Positions 14,259 through 34,175 of a stretch of DNA of 34,175 bases are shown one piece after another. Under the pieces are notes generated by a model that saw only the letters and a list, made by a program, of their open reading frames with translations, made no database searches and was not told the DNA's origin. Source of the DNA: Kangiellaceae bacterium. GTDB lineage: Bacteria; Pseudomonadota; Gammaproteobacteria; Enterobacterales; Kangiellaceae. The DNA lies in assembly GCA_030590405.1 (NCBI GenBank), contig JAUUYO010000001.1, positions 1 to 34,175 on the forward strand, in the 5' to 3' direction. A program made the position numbers and the translations under genes. The first letter of the stretch is position 1. Every line of letters starts with the position of its first letter.

Positions 14259-15347
14259 TTATTTGTTATAAGAAATACGGTAAATGGCATTGGCATAATC
14301 ATCAGAGACTAACAGGCTGCCATCCTTTAATTCCACGATAGCAACAGGTCTGCCATAGGTTATTTCATTTTGCATAAACCCGGTCATAAAGGGTTCGTAT
14401 TTAATTATTTCAGAGCCTTTTAACGTCACCAAGCCGATTTTATATCCCGATTTTTTACTACGATTCCATGAACCATGTTCAGCAATAAAAAGTTGTTTTT
14501 TGTAGGATGCTGGAAACATTGTTCCCTGATAAAAATGTAGTCCAAGATTGGCAACATGTGCGCCAGTCTTTAAAACAGGAGCTACATAATCTTGTTCTTT
14601 TTTATTTTTAGCAAATGTAGGATCTTTGATGTTACCAGCATGATAAAAAGGAAAGCCATAATGTGAACCAATTTTGGTCACTCGATTTAATTCATCTGAT
14701 GGAATATCATCTCCCATCATGTCTCGGCCATTATCAGTAAACCAAAGTTCTCCAGTGTCTGGATGAAAATCAAATCCGACTGAATTACGAACGCCTTCTG
14801 CCATGACAGTAAGCGCTTTTGTTTTCATGTTGAGTGAAAATATTCTTGCATGCATATCCGTTTTTATTTCACACACGTTACAAGGAGCGCCGATAGGGAA
14901 AATAAGCTCACCTGTCGGGGAAAATCGCAAAAATTTCCATCCGTGGTGGCTCTCTTTGGGAAGTCCAGATAAAAACACCTCGGATATTGGCTTATCCAGA
15001 TTTTTATCAATGTTGGAGAACTTTAAAATACGACTCACTTCTGCTACATAGAGATCGCCATCTTTCCAGGCAATGCCAGACGGCATTTCTAATCCTTTAG
15101 CAACGAGCCAACGTTTATCAGATTTGCCGTCTCCATTTTCATCGAGCAGTGCATAAATATTGCCCGCTTTTCTTGAACCCACATAAACAATGCCTGAGTC
15201 TGATAGTGCCAATTGTCGAGCATTTTTAACATTCTTAGCAAAATAATCTACTTTGAATCCAGCTGGGAGCTTGAGTTGGTTAAGTTTAACTTCTGCTTGC
15301 ACATGATTTGTCAAAAATACCATTGCAATAATTAAGATTATTTTCAT
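14259..15347 (-). CDS. PQQ-dependent sugar / sorbosone dehydrogenase family protein, secreted
   Basis: Beta-propeller dehydrogenase-like sequence (FTDNGRDMMGDDIPSDELN, HYGFPFYH, AEHGSWNRS). I prefer the ATG at 15347, which gives the signal peptide MKIILIIAMVFLTNHVQA/EV, over the track's TTG at 15392. Confidence 0.78.
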   Translation of the reverse strand: MKIILIIAMVFLTNHVQAEVKLNQLKLPAGFKVDYFAKNVKNARQLALSDSGIVYVGSRKAGNIYALLDENGDGKSDKRWLVAKGLEMPSGIAWKDGDLYVAEVSRILKFSNIDKNLDKPISEVFLSGLPKESHHGWKFLRFSPTGELIFPIGAPCNVCEIKTDMHARIFSLNMKTKALTVMAEGVRNSVGFDFHPDTGELWFTDNGRDMMGDDIPSDELNRVTKIGSHYGFPFYHAGNIKDPTFAKNKKEQDYVAPVLKTGAHVANLGLHFYQGTMFPASYKKQLFIAEHGSWNRSKKSGYKIGLVTLKGSEIIKYEPFMTGFMQNEITYGRPVAIVELKDGSLLVSDDYANAIYRISYNK

Positions 15348-15482
15348 ATCGATTCTCAAATATTGATGAAATGAATCATTTGACCCTAACAAATATCCAC
15401 CTTTCTAGCAATGATGGTTTTTTTATTAATATTAAGGATATGTTACAGTTGTTCTAAATAATAAACAGATAGGCACTTATCT

Positions 15483-17162: not shown

Positions 17163-19799
17163 TTGGCTAATAAATTAAATGCTGAAACGGAACTTCAGGC
17201 AGAACTAACAAAGCATAAAGCAAGAGCCAAACGACTGGAACAAGTTGTCAGGTCCCTTTCTGCTACCAAAAAACAACAAAATGCACTTTTCCGAATTGTT
17301 GATCTTGCTAATTCAAGCAACAGCCTTCCAGCCTTTTATTTTGAATTACACAAGATCGTTAGCGAGCTGACTTTAGCAAAAAGTTTTTTTATTATGCTGC
17401 TTCACCCTGAAGGTGATTTTGTGAGCTTTCCTTATTATAAGGATGACGAAGATGAACAACAGAAAGGGAGAGAGCCGTTATATAACCCGACAAAAAAAAT
17501 TCCAAAGGAAAAATTGGCAGGGACTGCAACCATGAAAGTCATTGAAGAGCGCAACCTGTTACACTTAAACAGGGTTGGATTTGAAAATATGACCGTAACT
17601 GGTCGAGTGCCGGAAGACTGGATTGGAGTACCTTTGATAATAGAAGGGCAGCTATTAGGCGCTCTGATCGTACAAAGTTACGATGAAGGCTTTCGGTACG
17701 ACAAGCGGGATGAAGAGTTACTCGTTTATGTTTCACAACATATTGCTACCAGTCTAAAAAGAAAGCAAGATGCTGAATCACTTAAAGAGGCTCATAAAAA
17801 GTTACAAAATCATAATCGGGAACTGGAGGTTAGAGTTGCTGGACGTACCGAAGAACTTAAAAAAATCAATATTACTTTGGCAAACGAAGCTAAAGAGAGA
17901 AGAAAAAGTGAGAAAATCCAGAAAGCCCTTTTTAAGATTACTGATCTGGTAAGTACCGCCAGGAATTTGAACGACCTTTTTGTTGGGGTTCATCAAACTA
18001 TTTCTGAGCTGATGTATGCTAACAATGCCTTTATTGCACTCTTGTCTGAGGACAAAAGCCAGCTGGAATTTCCATATTTTGTCGATCAATACGATGAGCG
18101 ACCTGGTAATATCGAACTCGCTTTGGATGGACCACAATTTGAACAAGGATTAACAACTCAAACTCTAATTAGTGGCAAATCTCTGCTTTATAATTCTTCT
18201 GAAGGTCCTGCTCAAAATCAAGTGGGAGCTGAAGCCGTTTCCTGGCTTGGTGTTCCACTAAAGGACAAAAAGGATGTTTTTGGAGTCATTGTGATACAAA
18301 GCTATGATTTAGAACAGGTTTACGAACAACAACACTTGTCACTGTTAGAAACAGTCGCCCACCAGGTTTCGACCGCTATTTTACGTAAAAAAGATTCGGA
18401 TGCACTCATGAAGGCGCATGAGCATCTGGAACGGCGAGTCAAAGAAAGAACATCAGTGCTAGAAAAGACCATCGCTAATCGACGAAAAATTGAAAAACGA
18501 TTAGAACATGAGTCACTACATGATTCTCTCACTCTGTTGCCTAACAGACGTTACTTAAGTGAAGAACTTAATATTGTGTTAAAAGGTAAAGTAACTGGGC
18601 AATCATGTGACGTCGCATTACTTTTTCTTGATCTCGACCGTTTCAAAATTATCAATGATAGCTTGGGTCATCATATTGGCGATTTGTTTTTAATCGAAGT
18701 CGCTAAAATTCTAAAAAATTGTATGCGAGAGGATGACAAAATTGTCCGTTTAGGTGGCGATGAGTTTTGTATTTTAATGTATGATATTTACTCGGTTAAA
18801 ATCGTAGTTACTCTCGCAGAGCGGGTGTTAAACAAATTGCGCAAACCTGTTGTTGTGGGGCAACACTCTTTAATTACCAGTGCAAGCATTGGTGTCAGGT
18901 TGGCAACAATCGGCGAAGATAGTAGTGATCGAGTGATTGGAGACGCCGATTCAGCTATGTATCAGGCTAAACATGGAGGCAAAGATCGCTATTGTTTATT
19001 TGACGCCAATGTAAGAAAAATAATCACCCAAAGACTCAAAATCGAACAAGATCTGAGAGTTGCGATTGGCACCGAGCAGCTTACCCTTTACTACCAGCCA
19101 GTTATTGATTTATTTAGTCATCGGGTTGTTGGCCTGGAGGCCCTTATTCGTTGGCAACATCCTGAACTTGGTTTTATTGGTCCTGCTGAATTTATTCCTA
19201 TTGCTGAAGAGACTGGTTTAATACAAGAGTTAGGTGAATCTGTTGTTTCAATGGCCTGTGAGACGTTAAGTGAATTCTCAAAAATTATTGAACTCAAAGA
19301 GCTTTATATCAACATTAATATATCGGCGATGCAAATTCTTACCAGAACACTAGACAACTTTATTCGTAAGGAAATAGCTAAATATGGTATCGATCCAAAT
19401 AATTTGAATGCTGAAATAACTGAAAGTATTTTAGTGGAAGATTTCAACGCCGCTATTCTTTTTGTGCAAGAACTCAAATCGATCGGTATGAAAGTCTTAC
19501 TTGATGATTTTGGTACGGGTTATTCTTCTCTTAGTTATTTACATCAATTTCCTTTTGATATCATTAAATTGGATCAATCTTTTATTCAATTAACCGATGA
19601 AAATGAGAAATTAGTGGGTATGATAGAATCCATTGGTTTTCTGGTTTCTAGCCTGGGAATGGATATCGTTGTCGAAGGAATAGAAACGGAGTCTCAATTG
19701 GAACTTGCTCAAAACCTCAATTGTAGGTATGGACAAGGATATTTATTCGCAAAACCGATGCCTAAAACTGAGGTTTTGACCTTCATAAAAACATGCTAA
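17163..19799 (+). CDS. c-di-GMP turnover protein: (coiled coil-GAF) x2 - GGDEF - EAL (878 aa)
   Basis: Intact GGDEF (RLGGDEFCIL) with an upstream LPNRRY linker, and an intact EAL (LEALIRWQHPE ... DDFGTGYSSLSYL ... EGIE). Two GAF-like modules each follow a coiled-coil segment. The start is uncertain: the track uses TTG at 17163, the first in-frame ATG is about codon 77 (inside the first GAF), and I saw no clear SD. Confidence 0.9.
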   Translation: MANKLNAETELQAELTKHKARAKRLEQVVRSLSATKKQQNALFRIVDLANSSNSLPAFYFELHKIVSELTLAKSFFIMLLHPEGDFVSFPYYKDDEDEQQKGREPLYNPTKKIPKEKLAGTATMKVIEERNLLHLNRVGFENMTVTGRVPEDWIGVPLIIEGQLLGALIVQSYDEGFRYDKRDEELLVYVSQHIATSLKRKQDAESLKEAHKKLQNHNRELEVRVAGRTEELKKINITLANEAKERRKSEKIQKALFKITDLVSTARNLNDLFVGVHQTISELMYANNAFIALLSEDKSQLEFPYFVDQYDERPGNIELALDGPQFEQGLTTQTLISGKSLLYNSSEGPAQNQVGAEAVSWLGVPLKDKKDVFGVIVIQSYDLEQVYEQQHLSLLETVAHQVSTAILRKKDSDALMKAHEHLERRVKERTSVLEKTIANRRKIEKRLEHESLHDSLTLLPNRRYLSEELNIVLKGKVTGQSCDVALLFLDLDRFKIINDSLGHHIGDLFLIEVAKILKNCMREDDKIVRLGGDEFCILMYDIYSVKIVVTLAERVLNKLRKPVVVGQHSLITSASIGVRLATIGEDSSDRVIGDADSAMYQAKHGGKDRYCLFDANVRKIITQRLKIEQDLRVAIGTEQLTLYYQPVIDLFSHRVVGLEALIRWQHPELGFIGPAEFIPIAEETGLIQELGESVVSMACETLSEFSKIIELKELYININISAMQILTRTLDNFIRKEIAKYGIDPNNLNAEITESILVEDFNAAILFVQELKSIGMKVLLDDFGTGYSSLSYLHQFPFDIIKLDQSFIQLTDENEKLVGMIESIGFLVSSLGMDIVVEGIETESQLELAQNLNCRYGQGYLFAKPMPKTEVLTFIKTC

Positions 19800-23196: not shown

Positions 23197-24288
23197 ATGT
23201 CAAGAAACACACAAGCGATTATCAGTTTAGACAATATCCGTTCCAATTTTTTATTGGCGAATCAATGGGCGCCACAATCAAAAAATATGGCAGTTATTAA
23301 AGCGGATGCCTATGGGCATGGTTTGCTAGCTGTGGCAGAGGCTTTGCAGTCTTTAGTGCCCGCTTTTGCGGTGGCGATATTTGATGAAGCGGTGGCATTA
23401 AGGAACGGTGGCATTACAAAAAATATTCTTATTCTGCAAGGGGTTAACTGCGCTACCGAACTAACTTATGCCAGTGAAAATGATTGTTGGATAACACTTC
23501 ACAACAAACAACAAATTGATTTATTGTTGGCCACGAAATTAAAACAACCGCTTAAAGTGTGGTTAAAATTAGATACCGGAATGCACCGACTCGGTCTCGA
23601 TCAAAAGCAATTTGATAAAAGCTTACAACTTATAAAACAATGTCGTTGGATTGCAGATGACTTTGTTGTTTCATCCCATTTTTCTTGTGCCAGTGAATTA
23701 GCCAATGGCGAGTCTAAAAAGCAATTCAACAAATTCAATGAAATGATTACTGAGGCCAAATTGCCATCAAACATTGAATTAAGTCTGTCTAATTCACCTG
23801 CCATCGCACACTTACCGGAATCTAACTTGAACTGGAATCGGCCAGGGATCATGCTTTATGGTTTGCCGTTATTTGACGGGCCTCATAGTAGTGACCAACA
23901 ACTTAAAGCGGCTATGAGTTTTGAATCAGAAGTTGTGGCTATTCGAGAAGTGGAAACGGGCGAGTATGTTGGTTACTCTAATAAATGGCAAGCGACACGG
24001 CCCTCAAAAATAGCGACAGTTTCTGTTGGGTATGCTGACGGTTATCCGCGTCAGGCGAAAAATGGAACGCCGGTATTGGTTAAGGGAGAAAGAGCCAGCT
24101 TGGCCGGGGTGGTGTCAATGGATTTGATTGGTGTCGATGTGACAGACCTGTCAAATGTTTCAATCGGCGATCCAGTTGAGCTTTGGGGGGAACATTTATC
24201 TGCCAATGAAGTAGCAAGTTACGCCAACACTATCGGTTATGATTTAATATCAGGTGTTAGTCGACGAGTGCCTCGTGTTTATAAATAA
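23197..24288 (+). CDS. alr: Alanine racemase (363 aa)
   Basis: PLP-lysine motif AVIKADAYGHG, the VSVGYADGYPR segment, and the C-terminal IGYDLISGVSRRVPRVY. Confidence 0.92.
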   Translation: MSRNTQAIISLDNIRSNFLLANQWAPQSKNMAVIKADAYGHGLLAVAEALQSLVPAFAVAIFDEAVALRNGGITKNILILQGVNCATELTYASENDCWITLHNKQQIDLLLATKLKQPLKVWLKLDTGMHRLGLDQKQFDKSLQLIKQCRWIADDFVVSSHFSCASELANGESKKQFNKFNEMITEAKLPSNIELSLSNSPAIAHLPESNLNWNRPGIMLYGLPLFDGPHSSDQQLKAAMSFESEVVAIREVETGEYVGYSNKWQATRPSKIATVSVGYADGYPRQAKNGTPVLVKGERASLAGVVSMDLIGVDVTDLSNVSIGDPVELWGEHLSANEVASYANTIGYDLISGVSRRVPRVYK

Positions 24289-24345
24289 TATTGCTCCTGT
24301 TTTATTTTGGTTCACTCATTTCTACAGTCATTGGAGGATGCTGAA

Positions 24346-25461
24346 CTACTCAATTGCCACAAAATCGTCAAAATGTTCGATTTTGACTTTATGGTTGGCC
24401 GCTAATTGACCGACTCTATCGAGCGTTTGGATATGCGCAATATTATCCATTTGCCAAAGGTCTTTCGGCTGGACATCGGTTACGCCAATTGCTTGCAGGC
24501 CTTTTTGAGTGAGGTTAGTGTTGTAACGCATATAAGTGAATAGTTTTTCGGCTGTGGGGCCTTTAGTATTAATTAAATCGCCAATTTCCATATCGATCTC
24601 ATCACCACACAAACACTTTCCAAATGACCGGCAAAGAAGATCTTGCTCAACACTTGCTGCAGACATAAGCGCCTGGGGAGTTTGGGTAGCGGTGTAGCCC
24701 AAATGCATATCTTTTGTTGTTATCTCCTTTTTAACTTCTGGTACGTTACCGGTCCCGACCGACACCAGTAACATCTTGTTTTCCCCCGTTGGCCATTGCA
24801 ATTTATAAGGTTCAAGGGTGGCCATTAAAAAAGTCTGAAAAGAGGGGTTGTTGTAGGGGGTGACGCCGCCATCGACAAACAGAAACTTAGTATCGCCAAG
24901 AGTAATGCTTTCTGGCTCAAAAAAGGTAGGTGCTGCGGTACTCGCTCGGACCAGCTGCCAAAGGGGCAGGTTAAGATTACAGTCAGGTAAATTTTTGTCA
25001 TTAAATAGTGCGTTGGGATTATTACTCATCAACCAGGGTGAGCCGGTGGAGGCGTTTCGCATCACTATCATTAACAAGGTTTTGATGGTATTGCTGCCCA
25101 AAGTCTCTGATCTGCCAAACGTATCTTTTAATATTCGAGTGATGGCTTCTGATTGGTATTTAAAATAAAGACGCTTTGAAATGGAGGCTTTTTTGAATAT
25201 CTCCTGACTGCATTCCAGATAAAAGGGACGAATTTCTGCGGTACTCATGCCGGTCGCCAGTGCTGTCGCAAGAATAGCGCCGGTACTTGTGCCTGAAATA
25301 TAGTCAAAGTAATCAGACAGTAATAAATCGGGGTTAGCTGTTGCCTGGCGTAACTGTTGTTCGATTTGCTCTAACATGCCCAGCGCTAACAGGCCTCGGA
25401 TACCGCCGCCATCAATCGTGAGTATTTTTTTCTGTTGCTTGTTTTGCTGTTTAGAAGTCAT
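24346..25461 (-). CDS. Patatin-like phospholipase (371 aa), catalytic motifs intact
   Basis: Oxyanion-hole motif DGGGIRG, nucleophile elbow GTSTG (GxSxG) and catalytic Asp in FVDGGV. GGAG SD about 8 nt upstream of the ATG. Divergent from the TIR operon. Confidence 0.88.
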   Translation of the reverse strand: MTSKQQNKQQKKILTIDGGGIRGLLALGMLEQIEQQLRQATANPDLLLSDYFDYISGTSTGAILATALATGMSTAEIRPFYLECSQEIFKKASISKRLYFKYQSEAITRILKDTFGRSETLGSNTIKTLLMIVMRNASTGSPWLMSNNPNALFNDKNLPDCNLNLPLWQLVRASTAAPTFFEPESITLGDTKFLFVDGGVTPYNNPSFQTFLMATLEPYKLQWPTGENKMLLVSVGTGNVPEVKKEITTKDMHLGYTATQTPQALMSAASVEQDLLCRSFGKCLCGDEIDMEIGDLINTKGPTAEKLFTYMRYNTNLTQKGLQAIGVTDVQPKDLWQMDNIAHIQTLDRVGQLAANHKVKIEHFDDFVAIE

Positions 25462-25636
25462 TGATATTGCTCCAATTATTGTTTCATATCATAGATATTC
25501 GCTGGCTGAAAGGCAAGTTGAGTGTCATCTTTTAGAGCATGTAATAGACTATTTGTCTGTCGCATGAATCTCGAATATGAGCTAAATCTTACTATTCCTT
25601 TCCAATTTGTGTTTTTTCTGATAAAACTAGACCTTA

Positions 25637-25691
25637 GGAGCCTGTCTGAAAATAGGAAACCTACTACGGTCTCTATTCTCAGACAGGCTCC
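25637..25691. promoter_or_regulatory. Long imperfect inverted repeat (19-bp stem with 1 mismatch, 17-nt loop) in the patatin/TIR-operon intergenic region
   Basis: GGAGCCTGTCTGAAAATAG (25637-25655) pairs with CTATTCTCAGACAGGCTCC (25673-25691) at 18 of 19 positions. It directly abuts REP-like copy C. Function unknown. Confidence 0.6.
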
Positions 25692-25728
25692 AGGGGCTGT
25701 TGATCTTTCATAGTTCAACAGCCCCTGG
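25690..25728. repeat. REP-like palindromic element, copy C (complete palindrome)
   Basis: Perfect 14-bp stem CCAGGGGCTGTTGA (25690-25703) / TCAACAGCCCCTGG (25715-25728) with an 11-nt loop TCTTTCATAGT. It shares a 31-nt core with copies A and B. Confidence 0.85.
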
Positions 25729-25785
25729 TATCTAGCGGAATATAATTTCCCTGTTATTTTTACCCTATTGGTAAGGACGATAATA

Positions 25786-27438
25786 ATGATAAATGGCCAG
25801 CTGTTTTCCACCCAGTTCAAACAAAGACTTATGCTCGTTATCTGCTGTATTCTGTTGAGCGCCTGTAGTGGTCATCAAATCAGGCAAGATAAGCTACTAA
25901 AAGCCCATCAGACATTCTATGATGATTATGAACCCAATTTGCAAAAATTTAACCGTGAGATCAATCAGTCATTAACCTTACGCAAGCGTTCAGTGAGTTT
26001 TTACACTCAGGAAATGCTGGAAAGTAAGGCTCAATATTTTGATGCCAAAGATATCGCACAAATTCAATCAACGGTTTCAGAGTATAAACGTAACCGCGAT
26101 GTGCTGCTCAATGATATTGCTTTTCGATACCGCAAACTGATTGAAGATGTTGAGTTGAGGTTTGGTCTAACCGAGCCATCGGGATTGGTGAATTATCCGT
26201 CATTCTTTGCCATTGGTGGAAAAAACATACTGCATGTTAACCCCATGGATAAAAAAGGCAGGCAGTACATCAATGTCTTCAAGTTGGGGTTAGCTGCAAC
26301 TTTGACTTTATACGACAACTTTATCATTGCGATTATGCCGTATCAGGAAAATGGCCATTTCCGGCGAAAAATCAATTACGACAATATTGATAATCAAAAA
26401 ATTATCGAAGATATTTCAGGCAACTTCCGTCGATTAGATAATTATAAAGATACCCTGCGAGTGGTTGAATTTAATGATAACGTCAGAAAATGGGAAAAAC
26501 AAAACATCACCCATGCGATGATTTTAGATAAAGATAACGATTATTTTAATGTCCTCATCGATGGAAGTTATACCAATAAACGGATTAAAGATATTTCCTT
26601 ACTTGATCGGTTGGCCTTCCGCACGGTCAGGTTTAGACGTATTTTGCGAGACACCATGTTTGATTTTGGTAATGAGAGCATGAATTTCGTCAGTAAAATA
26701 TTTGGTAATAGCATGGGACTGATTTCTTCAAGAGAAGGCTATCTTAAAAATATTCCCCGCAGTCATAAAGACAAAATTGAAAGTGAATTAATGCCAGGGG
26801 ATATCTTGCTGGAAAAGACTCCCTTTCGTTTGACTGATCGATTTATCCCAGGCCACTGGGGGCATGTGGCGATTTGGACCGGTTCAGAAAAACAGTTAAA
26901 AGAGCTTGGTATTTGGAATGAGTTGCCCGCTCTCTACAAAAAAGCCCAAACAAGACTAGGTTATCAAGGCCCTTCCTTTCAGCAGCAGATTCGCTCGGGG
27001 CATAAAATTATCGAAGCGCTTCGACCCGGCGTACAGATCAATAGTTTAGAGCATTTTTTAGACATTGATGATATGGCGGTTTTACGTGATAAAAAGGTTA
27101 AGCAAGCGGCAATGAAACGGTATTTAACCAGAGCTTTTGAACAGGTTGGCAAGGAGTACGATTTTAATTTTGATGTTGAAACCGATAAAAAAATTGTTTG
27201 CTCCGAGTTGGCATTTGTTGCTTATGACGATTACCAATGGCCAGTGGCTAAAACCGCAGGTCGTTATACGATTTCCCCCGATCATGTCGGTGAAAAAGCT
27301 AATGGTGAAGGGCCTTTTGAACCGGTAATGTTGTATCATGATGGAAAAATAATAGAGAGTAATATTCAAATTAATTTTAACCATTTGATGAAGGCTGAGT
27401 ATCAACAAGTGTCAGCCGATCTTGTGCCTATTCTATAA
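25786..27438 (+). CDS. Lipoprotein with C-terminal permuted papain-fold (YiiX/YaeF, NlpC/P60-superfamily) domain
   Basis: From the ATG at 25786 (AAGGA about 8 nt upstream) the N-terminus is MINGQLFSTQFKQRLMLVICCILLSAC/SG, i.e. a basic n-region, a hydrophobic core and the lipobox L-S-A-C. The C-terminal third has the His-then-Cys permuted order (GDILLEK...IPGHWGHVAIWTG ... IIEALRPGV ... KIVCSELAFVAYDD). About 300 residues in between are unassigned. The track's TTG at 25768 is less likely. Confidence 0.72.
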   Translation: MINGQLFSTQFKQRLMLVICCILLSACSGHQIRQDKLLKAHQTFYDDYEPNLQKFNREINQSLTLRKRSVSFYTQEMLESKAQYFDAKDIAQIQSTVSEYKRNRDVLLNDIAFRYRKLIEDVELRFGLTEPSGLVNYPSFFAIGGKNILHVNPMDKKGRQYINVFKLGLAATLTLYDNFIIAIMPYQENGHFRRKINYDNIDNQKIIEDISGNFRRLDNYKDTLRVVEFNDNVRKWEKQNITHAMILDKDNDYFNVLIDGSYTNKRIKDISLLDRLAFRTVRFRRILRDTMFDFGNESMNFVSKIFGNSMGLISSREGYLKNIPRSHKDKIESELMPGDILLEKTPFRLTDRFIPGHWGHVAIWTGSEKQLKELGIWNELPALYKKAQTRLGYQGPSFQQQIRSGHKIIEALRPGVQINSLEHFLDIDDMAVLRDKKVKQAAMKRYLTRAFEQVGKEYDFNFDVETDKKIVCSELAFVAYDDYQWPVAKTAGRYTISPDHVGEKANGEGPFEPVMLYHDGKIIESNIQINFNHLMKAEYQQVSADLVPIL

Positions 27439-27458
27439 AAATTAAAATTGGTAAGATT

Positions 27459-29873
27459 ATGTCAGGACAAATTAAAACTTCATCAAATCATCATAAGTAC
27501 CATGCGTTTATTTCTTATCGCCATGCTGACAATAAAGAGCAGGGCAGGCAATGGGCGAGCTGGTTACATCAATCGATAGAAACTTACCAGATCCCGTCAG
27601 ATTTAGTCGGTAGAGTCAATGAACGCGGTGATGTGATCGGGGCGAGAATTTTTCCTGTTTTTAGAGATGAAGAAGAGTTACCCGCCCATGCCGACCTTGG
27701 TAATGCGATTGTTAAAGCACTCGACTCGACTCGTCTGCTAATCATTTTATGTTCGCCCAATGCTGTTGCATCGACTTACGTGGCAGATGAAATCGATTAT
27801 TTTAAAAGTTGTGGTCATTCCGACCGGATCATTGCTGTGATGATCGACGGGGAGCCGAATACCAGTTGGGACAGAAGTAAACTGGCGTCAGGTTTTACCG
27901 TAGAAGATGAGTGTTTCCCCATTCCATTACAGTTTGAATATGACGATAAAGGTCAACGAACTGAAAAACACGCCGAACCGATCGCCGCTGATTTTAGAAT
28001 TAACGACAAGGGTAGAACCAAACAAGGTTGGACAACCTCAAACGCCTATAAAAAACACCTAAAAGAATCAAGCAAATATTCGACTAAAGAAATTAATCAA
28101 TTAGTTGAAAAATATCACCAACAACAGCACTTAATGTTGTTAAAAATAATTGCGGGAATATTAGGTGTTCCATTGAGAGAACTGACTCAAAGGGACAAAG
28201 AATATCAACTTGAATTAGCCCGACAAAAAGCAAAAAAATTAAGGCGCTGGTTAGTTGCCGTTGGTTTATTAGCGATTGTAGCGATCACCGCTGGGATTTT
28301 TGCCTATATTCAAATGAAGCAAGCGGCTAAACAGCGGGATAAAGCAGAAGCGGTTTTATTAGAAGTCAAAAATAATTTAAACTTTATGAATTTTGATTTA
28401 CGTGTCGCTCTGGAAACCTATACGCCGTTATCAGTGCAATTAAAGTTAGATAAACAGATCGACACTGTGCTTGGTACTTTGAATACTTATGGGGATGTTT
28501 CCAGTCAATCAATGGAAGATTCCGCAGCAGTTCTGATCCATAAAGCCAATGTTTTGATTAATGATGGAATGGTTGAATTATCCGAAGTTTTAAAGTTAGG
28601 TTTGGAAGCACAAGCAACCTTTGAAAAACTCATAGTTGATGATCCTGATGGCCAATTTCATCAACGCAATTTAGCGGCTGCAAAAGTTTTAATTAATCGT
28701 GTTTATCAACGCCAGGGAAAAAATAATAAAGCGTTGGAATATTGTATTTCGGCCGAACAGATTATTGAAATACTATTGCAGTCAGATCCTGAAAATATCG
28801 AGTTATTATCCGATTTAGCTGATATTCAAAGTGCCATAGGGGATAACTATTCCAATATGGCTGAGCTGGAAGAAGCTTTAATGTTTTTTCAGCGGGCGCT
28901 GGATAGTCGTTTAAATCTGGCTCAAAGAGAAACAGATAACCTGATCCATCAAGACGCGATTGCTTCTTCCTATTCAGATATTGCCACAGTTTATTTGAGC
29001 CTGAGTGAATATCAATCGGCTGAGAAAAATTACTTATCAGCATTAGAGGTTAGAAAAGATCTTAACAATCAATATCCCAATAATAATAAATGGCTTCATA
29101 ATTTATCAGTAGTGAAAAATAACCTGGCAACAACCTATCTCAGAAAGGGAGATTATGATTTAGCTCTGGTCCACTATACCGCATCTTCTGAAATCGATAA
29201 GCGGATGATTCAAGTTGATCCAGATAATATCTCCTGGGGTAAGAGTTATGTGTCCGGGTTATCTAATCTGGGCGATGTTTACCAAAATGTTGAAAATATT
29301 GAAAAAGCTTTTGAGGCTTATCAGAAAGCATTAAATTATGGCGTCACCATAAAATATCAAGAAAATGATTTTTACTGGCAAACCTTTTTACTCGAGTTGC
29401 AAAACAAAATAGCGCCGATTTTTTTACAAAGCAATTGGGTCCAGGAGGCGATTGAGATATATAAAAAGGCGATTACGCGAAATCAATTATTGATCAATAT
29501 GGTTCCTGATGATTCTGATCTGGTTACCGAATTACTTATTTTGCATTATGAGCTGTCTAAAATATATATTTCAAACGAAGAGTTAGAGCGAGCCTATGAG
29601 ACTCGCACCAGTGCGTTGAAAACTATAGAAAATAGCTTATTAAAATTTCCCGGAAATTCAGAGTTAAAACGAAGCAATATGGTGGTTCATTTTCAACTTT
29701 ACCAAATTAAAAATCAAATGCAGAATTTTCAGGGCGCGCTGGATAGCGCCAGGCAAGCACTCGATATCTTGCTACAATTGAAAAGTGATCATCAATTGTC
29801 AGACAGTGATGCTGGTTTGATCGAGCATATTAACAACGTCATAACTAAACTTAATAACTTATTAGAAGGTTGA
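27459..29873 (+). CDS. TIR domain - single TM helix - TPR-repeat protein (804 aa)
   Basis: N-terminal TIR_2-type motifs: YHAFISYRHADN, FPVFRDEEELP, LLIILCSPNAVASTYVADEI (candidate catalytic Glu111, codon 27789-27791) and AVMIDGEPN. A hydrophobic helix WLVAVGLLAIVAITAGIFAYI (about aa 264-284) is preceded by KAKKLRR. The C-terminal about 500 aa are TPR-like repeats (e.g. LSDLADIQSAIGDNYSNMAELEEALMFFQRALDSR; LHNLSVVKNNLATTYLRKGDYDLALVHY). No Walker A seen. Starts 20 nt after the lipoprotein gene. Confidence 0.88.
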   Translation: MSGQIKTSSNHHKYHAFISYRHADNKEQGRQWASWLHQSIETYQIPSDLVGRVNERGDVIGARIFPVFRDEEELPAHADLGNAIVKALDSTRLLIILCSPNAVASTYVADEIDYFKSCGHSDRIIAVMIDGEPNTSWDRSKLASGFTVEDECFPIPLQFEYDDKGQRTEKHAEPIAADFRINDKGRTKQGWTTSNAYKKHLKESSKYSTKEINQLVEKYHQQQHLMLLKIIAGILGVPLRELTQRDKEYQLELARQKAKKLRRWLVAVGLLAIVAITAGIFAYIQMKQAAKQRDKAEAVLLEVKNNLNFMNFDLRVALETYTPLSVQLKLDKQIDTVLGTLNTYGDVSSQSMEDSAAVLIHKANVLINDGMVELSEVLKLGLEAQATFEKLIVDDPDGQFHQRNLAAAKVLINRVYQRQGKNNKALEYCISAEQIIEILLQSDPENIELLSDLADIQSAIGDNYSNMAELEEALMFFQRALDSRLNLAQRETDNLIHQDAIASSYSDIATVYLSLSEYQSAEKNYLSALEVRKDLNNQYPNNNKWLHNLSVVKNNLATTYLRKGDYDLALVHYTASSEIDKRMIQVDPDNISWGKSYVSGLSNLGDVYQNVENIEKAFEAYQKALNYGVTIKYQENDFYWQTFLLELQNKIAPIFLQSNWVQEAIEIYKKAITRNQLLINMVPDDSDLVTELLILHYELSKIYISNEELERAYETRTSALKTIENSLLKFPGNSELKRSNMVVHFQLYQIKNQMQNFQGALDSARQALDILLQLKSDHQLSDSDAGLIEHINNVITKLNNLLEG

Positions 29874-29910
29874 GCAGGTCAATTTCTTGTAATGGAAAAA
29901 ATCAAAGAGC

Positions 29911-32900
29911 ATGACTGATAGTCAAAAATATAAATACAAAGCATTCATCAGTTACAGTCATCAGGACAGTAAGTGGGGCGATTGGCTACATAAAGCGCTA
30001 GAGTCTTACACCGTCCCGAAAACAATTCGTGGAAAGCCCAATCGAGACGGCAAAGTCCCTGATAAGTTATTTCCTGTGTTTAGAGACCGGGAAGAGCTTC
30101 CTACCGCCACTGATTTAGGGGCGGTGATCTCAAACGCCATACAAAGCTCTGCTTATCTAATTGTTATTTGCTCGCCTCGCTCGGCAAAGTCGATGTGGGT
30201 GAATCAGGAGATCATCAACTTTAAAGCTCTGGGCCGAGAAAATCGGGTGCTGGCAATTATTGTCGATGGTGAGCCGAACGGTGCTGACAAACCGGGAATG
30301 GAAGATATTGAATGTTTTCCTGAGGCATTAAAGTTTATAGTGGGTGATGACGGAAAGCAGACTAGCGAAAGAACCGAGCCCATCGCAGCTGATGCACGCG
30401 AGGGAAAAGACGGTAAGAAAAACGCACTGATTAAGTTACTTTCTGGCCTGCTTGGGGTTAATTATGATGATTTAAAGCAACGTGAAAAAACACGTCAGCG
30501 TCATCGCCGAATGACTTATTTTGTCGCGGCGACTTTATTTGCCGCCGTTGGGATTGGTTATTGGCAGTACGCACAAAAAATTGAGAACCAGCGGTTAATT
30601 GAGGAAAGCCAATCACTCGCCATTCAATCACAAGAAGCTCTAAAACAAGGTGATAGTAAAAGGGCGATATCTCTAGCGCTTAAAGCATTGCCTGAGGATC
30701 TGGACGATGCTGACAGACCTTGGGTAGAGTCAGCCGAAAATGCCCTGTCAAGGGCGATGTATCAACACAAGGAGCAATATTCGTTTAAGGCTCATCAAGG
30801 CAAAGCCACTCATGTGATATCCAGTCCAGATGGTCGTTATTTATTCACTGCTGGTGACGATAGAAAAATAAAAAAGTGGAATGTAAGCCGTCAACAACTG
30901 ATTGAGCAATTTGACAATCATCATGCGCCGTTACTGATTCTCTCCCATCATCCAATATTGCCAATACTGCTTAGCTGGGATGTTGATAGCCATGTGATTA
31001 TTCGCGACTTGGACAGCCATCAAGTTTTGGCAAAATTTGATCACTATGGTACCGATTATAATAAAAATGTTCGTTGGAGCGATGATGGCCAATTGGTTTT
31101 TATTAATCAAACGGCATGGAGCCTGAAAAATAAAACGGAAGTTTCATTAGATTTTTCTAGCACAGCGAGCCAATATGAAAATACCGTTTATCTTCCCATA
31201 CAAGGAGCGACTGACACGGCGATTGTTGATAGCGGCAATATTACCCTGGTTGATTTGGAAAACCGTAAAGAAATTGGCCATTTATCAATCGCTGAATCAG
31301 TTGATAAGCATCCTGGTGATATTGCCTTGATAGCATTGATCGATCAGAAAAAATATTATTTAGCCATCTATCAGGGGGGTGGTGCTTATTTATTTGATGC
31401 TAAAACCTATCAGTTGATCAAAAAATTATCCCACAAGATTGCAATTTTACTCGATTCGGATTGGGAAGATGGTAAGTTACTCCATTTTACCGATTATGAA
31501 TTTCGTCTTTGGGATCCTCAAACGGGTGTCGATCGGCTTTTGCACCCGGAAGCAGAAAGGATCATCATCAGCAAAGGCGTTAGTCTGGTTCAGGGGCGTG
31601 AACATCTCGCCATGATCAAATACAGTGATAAAATTCAGTTATTTGATTTAAAATTGGGACAAGTGACCAAAACTTTTACTAGTGGAAAAAAGCAGGATAG
31701 TTCCTCTTCCATTTATAACCAGATTGAACTGATCCAGGCGGCGAGTTTTAATCCTGACAATGGATTGTTAAATATAGCACTTATTGATGGTCGTATTCGT
31801 GCTTTTTTATTGGCAGATTTAGATAAAAGCTTATCGATTAATTTAAACTCGCCGATCAAAGAACTGATCCATTCTAAAGATCAGCGATTTTATGCCGCCT
31901 ATCTGACCAGCGGTGAGCTAAAACTGATTGATATAGAAAACAAAAAAATATTATCGGTTGCCGAAAATATCTCTTTAAGTGCTTTTACTTTTGCCAATGG
32001 TGGGAATCATCTGGCAATAATATCGGACAATCGAGTGAGCCTTTATGATACCAGTCAGCTGGTTGACTCTACAAAGCCAGTTACTCCGAAAGTCATGTTG
32101 CCCTTTGCGATAGAGGTGTCGCTGAAAGCTAAAATTATTCTTTCAAAAAGTGGTCAAAAAATAGGCTTAGTCAGTAATTATGATCAGCTAGCGATCTATG
32201 ACTTTAAACTCAAACAGTGGTTATCAATGCCAACCAGTAGCGGCTTGCAGGCTATTAATGCTGTGGCTGATCGTTGGCTGGTTAATTCGACGGATTTAAA
32301 ATTAACCAGGTTGGATAATGAGCTTATTCAACAGCATGAATCAGTCCTGCAAGATAAGCAGCTTTATCCTTTTTATCCTGATATTTATAAGTTTGATCAA
32401 ACAATGAATCATTCAATCTGGCTGGACAAAAACGGTCAGGTCGAATATCGAAATTTGAAAAAAAATAAATTGATAGCCAGTGTTGCTTTGGGACTAGGCA
32501 ATTCTTTATTCACCGATCTGAGTGCTAACGGTGAACTGGCACTTATAGGTAATTATCAGGAAATTTTACTGGTCAAAGAAAATGCAGTTAACAGCTCTGT
32601 TAGATTCACTCCCCGATTTAGCGATAACACTTCTTTTTTGTTTGCATCTCTTAATCCGCAAGGGAGCCAATTGACACTGGTAGAAAGTCTGTACAATAAC
32701 GGAGACAATCAACAAATCGTTATTTATCAACTGGATCTGTTTGATGAAAAAAAACCGACGATAGTATGGCAGTCTAAAATACTTGATGGACAGTTTACTG
32801 TTTTGCATCACACAAGTGAGGCGATAGTTTTAAAAAGCGATAAAAAACTGGTACTTTTCAATCGGGCAGAGAGAAGTATAAAACAAGCATCTAAACAGTT

Positions 32901-34175
32901 AGAAAATCTGATTTCTTCGATTGTTCAAGTAGGTCCCAAGGGCAGGCAATATGTGATTTATAAAGATGGTTTCTTATCGTTATATAAATTTAATTCCAAC
33001 CAACCCGTTTGGCGAAAAGAAATATATTCGCAGAACATTCTGTTCTTTAATCAAGATGGTCGCTATTTAACTAATGTGGTTAATCACTCTAATGGCGGAA
33101 AAATTGAGATATTAAATAGTCAAACCGGCGATGCCATCGCTACAAATCAGTTACACACAGGGATCGTTTATGGTTTTGATAGCAACGACAAAATCATTTC
33201 CTGGCAACAAAATATAGCGTTATGCTTGTGGGACTGGCAATCAAATCCTTCGATTGATTATGGTGACCGTTTTGATAAAAAAGCAGAATGCAAACAACAT
33301 TATAATAACAACGGGCAGGTGTTTTCAGTTGGCGATCAGCACTTGGTGATTAACGCTATCAGCCAACATCAATATATTGATCAAGACAAAAGTGAAAAGC
33401 TTGGAAAACTAAGTTGCGATACATCTTTCCTTGTTTACCCTTTAAAAACGAATAGCGAATCGGCGACTTGTATTAAACAGACCGATGGTTTTCAATTTTT
33501 TGACATAAACAAGGGCAGAGTCCATTGGCCATTTTTAAGTGAAGATAAAGTGGTTAGTTTTATCCAAAGCCAAAATGGTCGATATTTACTTAGTCTGGAT
33601 AAAACGGGCACTATTCATTTTGTTGATATTAAAAATCCAGTTCAACCGGGTCAGGCAGGCACAATACTCAATAGCAAAAATATTGCTCGATATCAGATTG
33701 ATGACTCCGGACAATATATGTCTTTAATTAAAAAGGACTGGTTGATTGAACTTTGGGATTTAAAGAACAAAAAGAAGCTGCATAGTACACAACTACCAAG
33801 AAATGAACTAAATTATTTAGGGCCGATGGAACTACTTATCAGTGAAACACAGCAATCTGTATTGATGTTTCAAAGTGGCGATATTTATGTATGGAACCCT
33901 GGTAACAAAATTTCCAACTTCAAAGTGGGGCCGATCAGAGCTGGTTCACCAGTAAGAATCAATTTAGACAACAAACGACTGGTGCAAGTTAATTACGATG
34001 GAATTCATTTATGGGATTGGTTTACCGGAAAAAAACTGATCACCCATCCACTACAAGGATATGCTAAAGGGGCCGATACAATTGATTTTCACCCATCACT
34101 TCATTTGTTTTCGATAACCGCCGATGAGCTAACCTTTTTCAATTTTGATGATGGCGCTCAATCTCACATGATAGC
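29911..34175 (+). CDS. TIR domain - single TM helix - WD40/beta-propeller repeat protein, more than 1421 aa, 3' end beyond the window
   Basis: Not in the ORF track because it has no stop in the window. I translated frame 1 from the ATG at 29911 and saw no stop through 34173. Sequence: MTDSQKYKYKAFISYSHQDSKWGDWLHKAL...FPVFRDREELP...YLIVICSPRSAKSMWVNQEI (candidate catalytic Glu100)...IIVDGEPNG...EPIAADAR...LLSGLLGVNYDDLKQREKTRQRHRR. A TM helix follows (MTYFVAATLFAAVGIGYW, about aa 201-218). Then comes one canonical WD40 unit (AHQGKATHVISSPDGRYLFTAGDDRKIKKWNV) and more than 1000 aa of degenerate beta-propeller-like repeats (e.g. SQNGRYLLSLDKTGTIHFVDIKN; LIELWDLKN; GIHLWDWFTGK). Starts 37 nt after the TIR-TPR gene. 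The first in-frame ATG follows a TAA at 29890-29892. Confidence 0.85.
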   Translation, partial: MTDSQKYKYKAFISYSHQDSKWGDWLHKALESYTVPKTIRGKPNRDGKVPDKLFPVFRDREELPTATDLGAVISNAIQSSAYLIVICSPRSAKSMWVNQEIINFKALGRENRVLAIIVDGEPNGADKPGMEDIECFPEALKFIVGDDGKQTSERTEPIAADAREGKDGKKNALIKLLSGLLGVNYDDLKQREKTRQRHRRMTYFVAATLFAAVGIGYWQYAQKIENQRLIEESQSLAIQSQEALKQGDSKRAISLALKALPEDLDDADRPWVESAENALSRAMYQHKEQYSFKAHQGKATHVISSPDGRYLFTAGDDRKIKKWNVSRQQLIEQFDNHHAPLLILSHHPILPILLSWDVDSHVIIRDLDSHQVLAKFDHYGTDYNKNVRWSDDGQLVFINQTAWSLKNKTEVSLDFSSTASQYENTVYLPIQGATDTAIVDSGNITLVDLENRKEIGHLSIAESVDKHPGDIALIALIDQKKYYLAIYQGGGAYLFDAKTYQLIKKLSHKIAILLDSDWEDGKLLHFTDYEFRLWDPQTGVDRLLHPEAERIIISKGVSLVQGREHLAMIKYSDKIQLFDLKLGQVTKTFTSGKKQDSSSSIYNQIELIQAASFNPDNGLLNIALIDGRIRAFLLADLDKSLSINLNSPIKELIHSKDQRFYAAYLTSGELKLIDIENKKILSVAENISLSAFTFANGGNHLAIISDNRVSLYDTSQLVDSTKPVTPKVMLPFAIEVSLKAKIILSKSGQKIGLVSNYDQLAIYDFKLKQWLSMPTSSGLQAINAVADRWLVNSTDLKLTRLDNELIQQHESVLQDKQLYPFYPDIYKFDQTMNHSIWLDKNGQVEYRNLKKNKLIASVALGLGNSLFTDLSANGELALIGNYQEILLVKENAVNSSVRFTPRFSDNTSFLFASLNPQGSQLTLVESLYNNGDNQQIVIYQLDLFDEKKPTIVWQSKILDGQFTVLHHTSEAIVLKSDKKLVLFNRAERSIKQASKQLENLISSIVQVGPKGRQYVIYKDGFLSLYKFNSNQPVWRKEIYSQNILFFNQDGRYLTNVVNHSNGGKIEILNSQTGDAIATNQLHTGIVYGFDSNDKIISWQQNIALCLWDWQSNPSIDYGDRFDKKAECKQHYNNNGQVFSVGDQHLVINAISQHQYIDQDKSEKLGKLSCDTSFLVYPLKTNSESATCIKQTDGFQFFDINKGRVHWPFLSEDKVVSFIQSQNGRYLLSLDKTGTIHFVDIKNPVQPGQAGTILNSKNIARYQIDDSGQYMSLIKKDWLIELWDLKNKKKLHSTQLPRNELNYLGPMELLISETQQSVLMFQSGDIYVWNPGNKISNFKVGPIRAGSPVRINLDNKRLVQVNYDGIHLWDWFTGKKLITHPLQGYAKGADTIDFHPSLHLFSITADELTFFNFDDGAQSHMI

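Follow-up and report, generated by a model that had tools for sequence, protein, structure and literature searches.

Two adjacent genes, P1 and P2, at the end of a 34,175-nucleotide (nt) stretch of the genome of a Kangiellaceae bacterium (contig JAUUYO010000001.1 of assembly GCA_030590405.1; the whole stretch that was analysed is called the window) encode proteins in which an N-terminal TIR domain is predicted to be joined, through a single transmembrane (TM) helix, to a large repeat domain outside the cytoplasm. The combination of TIR and repeat sensor is known; what appears from the sequences to be new is that the two are split across the membrane by a conserved helix. In the overall model that we favour, with a probability of roughly 55%, an extracytoplasmic ligand would cluster the receptors, the cytoplasmic TIR domains would cleave NAD+, and the product would here most likely activate a patatin-like phospholipase encoded close by. 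The features of the two genes are given below in window coordinates, with KD the Kyte-Doolittle mean and lengths in amino acids (aa).

27459..29873, + strand: P1, a complete open reading frame of 804 aa, TIR - transmembrane helix - TPR solenoid; 'long' head subtype.
27459..28163, + strand: P1 TIR domain, residues 1-235, with Glu111, a beta-hairpin plus helix insert (about 135-225), the strand EPIAAD (173-178) and the helix LMLLKIIAGILGV; from model, Foldseek and alignment.
28164..28244, + strand: P1 juxtamembrane helix, residues 236-262, with the near-invariant R245-D246-K and the basic cluster KAKKLRR; from family column frequencies and model.
28245..28310, + strand: predicted P1 transmembrane helix, residues 263-284, with the small-residue face L..LA..A..AG..A; KD 2.48, summed Hessa scale -1.5.
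28311..29870, + strand: P1 repeat domain, residues 285-804, an all-helical solenoid of about 12 TPR-like hairpins, predicted extracytoplasmic; from Pfam, model and Foldseek.
29911..34175, + strand: P2, an open frame with no stop before the window end, >1421 aa, TIR - transmembrane helix - WD40-type propellers; 'short' head subtype.
29911..30471, + strand: P2 TIR domain, residues 1-187, with Glu100, EPIAAD and LIKLLSGLLGV and without the 38-residue insert; TIR_2 48.3 bits and head alignment.
30472..30573, + strand: P2 juxtamembrane stretch LKQREKTRQRHRR plus weak predicted transmembrane helix YFVAATLFAAVGIGYWQYA, residues 188-221; from Lys plus Arg (K+R) counts, KD and homologous position.
30574..34175, + strand: P2 residues 222 onward, several WD40-type propellers, predicted extracytoplasmic, hyper-divergent relative to the head; from Pfam and comparison with locus L080.

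P1 and P2 lie head to tail on the + strand, with the P2 start 37 nt past the P1 stop codon. A sequence-only reading of this DNA, whose end coordinate 30570 is the end of the P2 hydrophobic helix, had claimed that the N-terminal regions of the two proteins align along their length. The pairwise alignment that it proposed bears this out, with similarity far beyond chance (BLASTP, 36% identity and 51% positives over 280 columns, E = 8e-53), and every sequence motif that it listed is present in both heads. Both heads exceed the Pfam cut-offs for TIR_2 (38.9 bits for P1 and 48.3 for P2, cut-off 28) and ThsB_TIR (31.6 and 34.4, cut-off 21.2). No NTPase family (NACHT, NB-ARC, nSTAND) was found among the Pfam matches of P1 and P2 at E<=0.01, so that the contrast drawn earlier with soluble STAND-type TIR proteins holds. 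No dedicated NCBIfam model for the P1/P2 family was found, and no DNA-level tandem repeats were detected in the TPR or WD40 coding regions.

The AlphaFold model of P1 residues 1-300 has a predicted local distance difference test (pLDDT) score of 93, and its best Foldseek PDB matches are the TIR domains of TLR15, TLR10, RPS4, SPARTA, SARM1 and AbTir (probability 1.00). In this model EPIAAD is a strand (175-178), LLKIIAGILGV lies within a helix at 209-235, and a single unbroken helix (239-299) holds R-D-K, the basic cluster and the membrane segment. To judge from the order of the elements, the TIR fold most likely ends with EPIAAD as its last strand and LLK..AG.LGV as its last helix, and the truly juxtamembrane part, by the model, is R-D-K plus the basic cluster only. 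The 'juxtamembrane motif' that the sequence-only reading had assigned to both proteins therefore stands in part: R-D-K and the basic cluster do precede the membrane helix, but the other two elements belong by the model to the end of the TIR fold. The juxtamembrane columns are strongly conserved in the family (R 99%, D 98%, K/R 80-98% at four positions). A Glu residue (P1 E111, P2 E100) is invariant in three family alignments and aligned with the Glu, in the motif S..V..E, of the plant TIRs L6 and AtTIR, which is their known catalytic residue. Because this residue is kept, the TIR domain of P1 and P2 probably acts as an enzyme rather than as an adaptor scaffold.

The hydrophobic helix is a property of the whole family. 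A search with P1 residues 1-300 returned 230 relatives, and in all those of sufficient length a hydrophobic helix follows EPIAAD at a distance of about 85-90 residues. A profile built from 32 heads and run on 1.84 billion cluster representatives (50% identity clusters) gave 20,392 matches, 6,301 of them at E<=1e-30; the best 150 all extend over the module from its start and include the hydrophobic helix, most of them being 600-1900 aa long. A scan of one genome per species provided 79 loci (loci are referred to by L numbers) containing 86 family proteins. In all 86, one hydrophobic helix falls at the same place in the alignment (mean KD 2.31, minimum 1.59), and among 132 further representatives (mean KD 2.32) a single one has no hydrophobic window there. 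A second hydrophobic stretch was seen in only 3 locus proteins and 2 of the 132 representatives. The sequence-only reading had described such a helix in both window proteins. That of P1 is clearly transmembrane (residues 266-284, KD 2.48), but the best 19-residue window of P2 (201-219, KD 1.17) is marginal when taken alone. The P2 segment contains a 13-residue core, FVAATLFAAVGIG (KD about 2.15), between aromatic residues, spans 20 residues without a charge, and aligns with the strong helix of every homologue, including short-subtype proteins in L016 (KD 2.06) and L046 (KD 2.57).

The orientation of the helix was assessed from K+R counts in the 15 residues on each side. In the 86 locus proteins the TIR side averages 5.8 and the far side 2.7, the TIR side being higher in 84 and never lower; in the 132 representatives the averages are 5.64 and 2.73, with the TIR side higher in 128. 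The combined excess on the TIR side is 212/218. Counts before and after the helix are 5/4 in P1 and 7/2 in P2, and neither protein has an N-terminal signal peptide. Because of this lack of a signal peptide and the positive-inside bias, the TIR domains are placed inside and the repeats outside: it is very probable that P1 has a cytoplasmic TIR domain, one N-in/C-out anchor and its TPR domain outside, and likely that P2 has the same topology with WD40 outside. The type II (N-in) anchor proposed by the sequence-only reading is thus supported as a prediction, and one that by the sequences appears stronger at the level of the family than from P1 and P2 alone. The possibility that the P1 TPR domain is a nucleotide-sensing TPR-S domain, which would argue for a cytoplasmic location, was considered and rejected (no Pfam match, no BLAST similarity).

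The helix is conserved in sequence as well as in position. No K, R, D or E occurs at positions 258-277 in any of 215 aligned sequences, and in these relatives W258, L265 (92%), A269 (89%), G273 (84%) and A276 (96%) are conserved. Within P1 258-277 (window 28230-28289) and its homologues, small residues recur at A266, A269, A272/G273 and A276 (i, i+3, i+7, i+10), with aromatic residues at both ends. This pattern suggests a helix-helix packing surface, that is, a specific contact rather than a passive anchor.

Behind the helix, P1 matches TPR_1, TPR_12, TPR_2 and TPR_10 at about 430-630 (Pfam). The full-length AlphaFold model (pLDDT 86.9) has 24 helices past the membrane segment, mostly above 90, that form a continuous TPR-like solenoid; its Foldseek matches are LGN/Pins, OGT and consensus or designed TPR superhelices, and by this model the solenoid is a generic peptide-binding scaffold. 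P2 matches WD40/beta-propeller families at about 283-683 and about 1175-1300. The more than 1200 aa of beta-propeller read earlier from the P2 sequence is plausible in its full extent, but Pfam assigns only about half of the post-helix residues to propellers. The loci yielded 64 complete ectodomains: 33 group with WD40 propellers, 19 with TPR and 1 with FGE-sulfatase, and the rest have no significant or only a weak propeller-type Pfam match. The 132 representatives divide into 81 WD40, 22 TPR and 29 others (including ankyrin, PDZ, FGE-sulfatase and divergent propellers). The phrase 'same head, different sensor', first applied to P1 and P2, is correct and holds family-wide. P1 itself illustrates this, as its head is closest to WD40-bearing heads (71-75% identical to those of Pseudoalteromonas, Glaciecola and other marine Gammaproteobacteria), and its nearest TPR-bearing relatives have heads that are 60-68% identical and ectodomains that are only 21-29% identical. 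To judge from these sequences, ectodomains are interchangeable across the family.

The P2 end, about 320-350 residues, and the downstream genes lie beyond the window. Exact-sequence look-ups of P1 and the C92 protein matched no contig, and the orthologous locus of the closest relative, L080, was used in their place. L080 carries alr, a FAD oxidase gene and a patatin gene, followed on the other strand by a Peptidase_C92 gene and one TIR-TM-WD40 gene encoding 1777 aa; it has no P1. The 1777-aa protein is the P2 orthologue, its residues 4-1455 aligning to P2 5-1417. Identity is about 90% over residues 1-200 (89% for the head) and 30-50% across the collinear ectodomain, and nucleotide similarity between the two loci stops at about window position 30806. 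The neighbouring proteins are 87% (alr), 88% (patatin) and 79% (C92) identical. Because the ectodomain is at 30-50% against about 90% for the head and 79-88% for the neighbours, the sensor part of P2 appears either to evolve far faster than the surrounding genome or to have been replaced by recombination. That ectodomains diverge fast and can be swapped, and that one genome can hold several paralogues, suggests a repertoire of specificities for recognition.

P1 belongs to the 'long' subtype with a 38-residue insert and P2 to the 'short' subtype, and their heads are alike at only 36-39%. The sequence-only reading had taken the pair for a tandem duplication. A recent duplication was rejected because the subtypes differ, the heads are this far apart and L080 has the P2 orthologue without P1; by their sequences P1 and P2 are old paralogues of two subtypes. 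Tandem pairs of a long and a short member recur in L016, L046, L058 and the window, and could represent heteromeric pairs. Tandem arrays of 2-4 family genes were observed in L011, L016, L023, L035, L046 and L058, and several copies per genome in Alteromonas arenosi (L014/L062/L063) and Glaciecola (L002/L005 and L007/L019).

The loci come from Pseudoalteromonas, Glaciecola, Colwellia, Kangiellaceae, Alteromonas, Marinobacter, Advenella, many Verrucomicrobiota/Planctomycetota, Myxococcota, Bacteroidota and others, and members were also found in Vibrio cholerae, V. vulnificus, Shewanella and Marinicella. All named source organisms are diderm. Database entries name the members 'TIR domain-containing', 'tetratricopeptide repeat protein', 'WD40 repeat protein' or 'hypothetical'. 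We found no description of a TIR-TM-repeat architecture in bacteria in the searchable literature, which did not cover two relevant comparative-genomics studies (NAR 2015, J Bacteriol 2020).

Genes that adjoin family members in other genomes bear on the output of the TIR domain. The commonest partner, in 11 of the 79 loci (L002, L015, L020, L023, L026, L039, L052, L053, L070, L074, L078), is a 450-760 aa membrane protein with TrkA_N (NAD-binding Rossmann) and RyR domains, for which the window has no counterpart. The RyR domain is a curious echo of animal cyclic ADP-ribose (cADPR)/ryanodine-receptor signalling. SLATT proteins adjoin members in 7 loci, sometimes with an alpha/beta-hydrolase. TPR-S is found fused to an adenylate/guanylate cyclase (L055 8032-9951, L076 5958-7889) or to a domain homologous to neighbours of SLATT clusters (L011 11343-13391), and a neighbour in L049 (14081-15559) has a cyclase domain and no TPR-S match. 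The TPR-S fusions suggest that the TIR product is relayed to a pore or into a second signal, a cyclic nucleotide. Homologues of the window patatin adjoin family members in 5 loci. Reciprocal look-ups that started from the patatin revealed operons of TIR(-TM), TPR-S and patatin in three unrelated lineages (L084, L088, L089), the TIR protein having a TM helix in two of them. The order in a Binatia genome is TIR-TM-WD40, TPR-S, patatin, and in a deltaproteobacterium TIR-TM (325 aa), TPR-S, patatin; in another genome patatin and TPR-S lie among three TIR genes. The patatin of two relatives of the window organism adjoins a cassette that ends in a TPR-S gene and whose middle gene is homologous to SLATT-cluster neighbours. 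The pairings TIR+SLATT (cADPR), TIR+TPR-containing hydrolase (ThsI) and TIR+ion channel have been validated experimentally as Thoeris types VII, VIII and X, and phospholipases are among the predicted Thoeris effectors (preprint 10.64898/2025.12.03.692087). Such SLATT, TPR-S, TrkA-RyR and patatin neighbours suggest nucleotide signalling by at least some members of the family.

Upstream of P1 in the window lie the two genes that enter our model.

24346..25461, - strand: patatin-like phospholipase, CapV-related; Pfam Patatin, PADLOC phospholipase effector E 1.5e-48, PDB CapV E 1e-22.
25768..27438, + strand: predicted lipoprotein with a C-terminal Peptidase_C92 domain (YiiX/YaeF permuted papain); lipobox LLSAC, Pfam E 2.5e-25.

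The patatin gene, a candidate effector, is divergent from the C92, P1 and P2 genes. Its product reaches 123.7 bits with the NCBIfam model CBASS_lipase, below the cut-off of 200, and it is flanked by alr and the C92 gene with no CD-NTase next to it, which does not make a CBASS locus. Its clade gave 7,997 matches at E<=1e-20; one homologue was seen beside Macro, NUDIX and SIR2_2 genes (L086). The link of the patatin to P1 and P2 is circumstantial. The C92 lipoprotein has Ser at +2 and is predicted to be of the outer-membrane type, its N-terminal about 330 aa being without annotation. Its gene ends 20 nt upstream of P1 on the same strand, and since only 20 nt (C92-P1) and 37 nt (P1-P2) separate the genes, C92 and P1 are probably in one operon; a promoter/terminator scan of 24000-30200 gave nothing above shuffled expectation. 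C92 orthologues in L080-L082 are 76-79% identical, the divergent C92/patatin pair is conserved in L080, L081 and L082, and the order C92 then TIR-TM-WD40 is found again in L080. The C92 lipoprotein may serve as an accessory in the periplasm or as a second effector, directed at lipid or wall.

The stretch after alr (window about 24300-30000) is a variable spot across the window, L080, L081, L082 and L083. The window has two TIR-TM genes there and L080 has one plus the inserted FAD-oxidase gene. L082 has no TIR-TM gene near its patatin/C92 pair, and a TPR-S-containing cassette and an acyltransferase are found there; in L083 alr is about 7 kb from the patatin, which the same TPR-S cassette adjoins, and there is no C92 gene. 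The G+C profile has no sharp island boundary. Two ordinary chromosomal genes elsewhere in the window, with no relation to P1 and P2, encode a protein with a weak, below-cut-off match to a PVC-type haem-binding CxxCH family (14259-15392, - strand) and a large GGDEF-EAL protein (17163-19799, + strand).

The mechanism that we propose starts from P1 and P2 as single-pass inner-membrane proteins, in which the basic juxtamembrane helix would run straight into the transmembrane helix. An extracytoplasmic ligand would bind the ectodomain, and binding would bring the transmembrane helices together and cluster the TIR domains. TIR enzymes need self-association for activity, and the clustered domains would then cleave NAD+. 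By analogy with Thoeris and the TIR/TPR-S systems, we favour here an NAD+-derived nucleotide that would switch on the CapV-like patatin, with simple NAD+ depletion as the fallback; the C92 lipoprotein, in the periplasm, may be an accessory on the outside. A broader reading, in which the family would be a new class of bacterial transmembrane receptor with a dimerising helix and a cADPR-like messenger gating patatin lipases, SLATT pores, TPR-S-cyclases and TrkA/RyR-domain proteins, is tentative and on balance doubtful.

Several points weigh against the membrane topology or against the patatin-coupled model. The hydrophobic segment might not span the membrane at all, in which case the TPR and WD40 domains would sense within the cytoplasm, as the repeats of soluble TIR-TPR or TIR-NLR proteins do. 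In bacteria, canonical WD40 and TPR_12-type repeats are usually cytoplasmic; the P2 segment has a KD of only 1.17, and the pLDDT of the helix is low in the full-length P1 model. A TIR-FGE-sulfatase fusion in L088 lacks any hydrophobic helix, so that ectodomain type is not diagnostic of location, and the FGE-sulfatase ectodomain was dropped for this reason as a marker of an outside location. Soluble proteins of this general make-up do exist, among them E. coli TIR-II (TIR+TPR; PMC11350192), BcTir/Tpr (a bacterial TIR-repeat protein; bioRxiv 10.1101/2023.05.26.542521) and the 824-aa 'tetratricopeptide repeat protein' of PDB 9m0n / 9umd, which has an N-terminal TIR domain, is the best PDB sequence match of the head profile (E 0.0014) and has no hydrophobic segment at the corresponding place, making it a soluble counterpart of P1. 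However, the helix of the family, of about 20 residues, has a mean KD of 2.3 and carries no charge in the 215 sequences, and the positive-inside bias is strong (212/218). Membrane insertion is expected for a hydrophobic segment of this strength that follows a basic cluster, and we consider a soluble arrangement highly improbable.

With the topology retained, the TIR domain may be the terminal effector, NAD+ depletion leading to growth arrest or death without a messenger and without a link to patatin or C92. A recurrent partner gene is missing from about three quarters of the 79 loci (about 60), the Thoeris survey counts stand-alone TIR proteins as effectors that deplete NAD+, and L082 keeps the patatin/C92 pair with no TIR gene nearby. 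The window adds to these points: the patatin is its only candidate effector, lies on the opposite strand and is one gene (C92) away from P1, no TPR-S (PF20308) was found in P1 or the neighbouring window genes, and there is no SLATT gene. Yet adjacency of SLATT, TPR-S, TrkA-RyR and patatin genes recurs in several phyla, and the validated Thoeris SLATT and TPR-containing effectors respond to TIR-made nucleotides; we regard a terminal effector as rather unlikely, if somewhat less so than a role outside immunity. In the latter case the proteins would serve general transmembrane signalling or envelope scaffolding (envelope state, cell-cell cues), with TIR as a second-messenger cyclase or a protein-interaction domain. 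PADLOC defence models at E<=1e-8 pick up few of 129 near neighbours, for the most part through helicase-type models that are regarded as generic; P1 and P2 themselves gave only a weak SAVED_TIR match to PADLOC models and none to a ThsB or Thoeris model. The family appears to lie outside classical defence islands, the other window genes are housekeeping (topoisomerase III, a GGDEF-EAL protein, MurQ, an antiporter, alanine racemase), no match to the module was found in phages (tblastn of the head against 50,697 phage records), and the commonest partner, the TrkA_N/RyR membrane protein, is read as channel-like. Against a non-immune role, the ectodomain diverges far faster than the head and the neighbouring genes, ectodomain swaps and several paralogues per genome are regarded as typical of conflict systems, and the SLATT and CapV-like patatin partners are known cell-killing effectors. 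We hold such a role to be improbable, and ligand-induced NAD+ cleavage coupled to the patatin remains the model that we prefer.

Comparison with known systems places P1 and P2 among several relatives in design. Like Thoeris ThsB, they score above the ThsB_TIR and TIR_2 cut-offs and have a catalytic-type Glu, and Thoeris effector classes (SLATT, TPR-S, phospholipase, channel-like) adjoin their relatives. As far as is known, ThsB itself is a small soluble protein that detects infection from within the cytoplasm. In contrast, the TIR domain of the P1/P2 family is tethered via the conserved TM helix to a domain of 500 to >1500 residues that is predicted to lie outside; no canonical effector shares the operon in the window, and the PADLOC Thoeris models are unmatched. 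Burroughs and Aravind (J Bacteriol 2020) are said to have predicted TIR / TPR-S / effector systems; the window patatin clade occurs in such operons (L084, L088, L089), whereas the window itself encodes no TPR-S. Soluble STAND/NLR-like TIR-NTPase-TPR/WD40 proteins (Avs, bNACHT) likewise pair a TIR at the N terminus with C-terminal TPR or WD40 repeats, which are thought to recognise invaders, but P1 and P2 have a membrane helix where the NTPase or linker would be, and sensing and output are predicted to be in different compartments. Eukaryote-like bacterial Ser/Thr kinases such as PknB (PASTA) and PknD (beta-propeller) have an N-terminal cytoplasmic enzyme, a juxtamembrane segment, one TM helix and an extracytoplasmic sensor, and are activated by ligand-induced dimerisation. 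P1 and P2 have the same predicted layout with TIR (NAD+ chemistry) rather than a kinase as output. With Toll-like/IL-1 receptors they share, by prediction, a single span with a repeat or solenoid ectodomain outside and TIR inside, and in both cases several paralogues join a conserved signalling head to ectodomains that diverge. The bacterial proteins are inverted, however: type II, with TIR at the N-terminus and no signal peptide, and with WD40 or TPR in place of leucine-rich repeats or immunoglobulin domains (LRR/Ig). The resemblance to Toll-like receptors is one of design and does not imply common descent of the architecture.

In the bacterial TIR systems studied to date, infection is, to our knowledge, sensed within the cell. 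If the repeats are truly periplasmic, bacteria could recognise threats or partners at the moment of entry through the envelope or earlier, and respond by NAD+-derived signalling or cell suicide. This would be the first case in which TIR signalling in bacteria starts from outside the cytoplasm, and in design a prokaryotic equivalent of Toll-like receptors; if true, it would give the Thoeris/TIR signalling field a new input route and would be strikingly convergent with the Toll-like receptors of animals. With at least 6,301 clusters at 50% identity (E<=1e-30), the family is large; it is spread over many diderm phyla, and its presence in culturable Vibrio, Pseudoalteromonas, Marinobacter, Alteromonas and Glaciecola makes the prediction directly testable.

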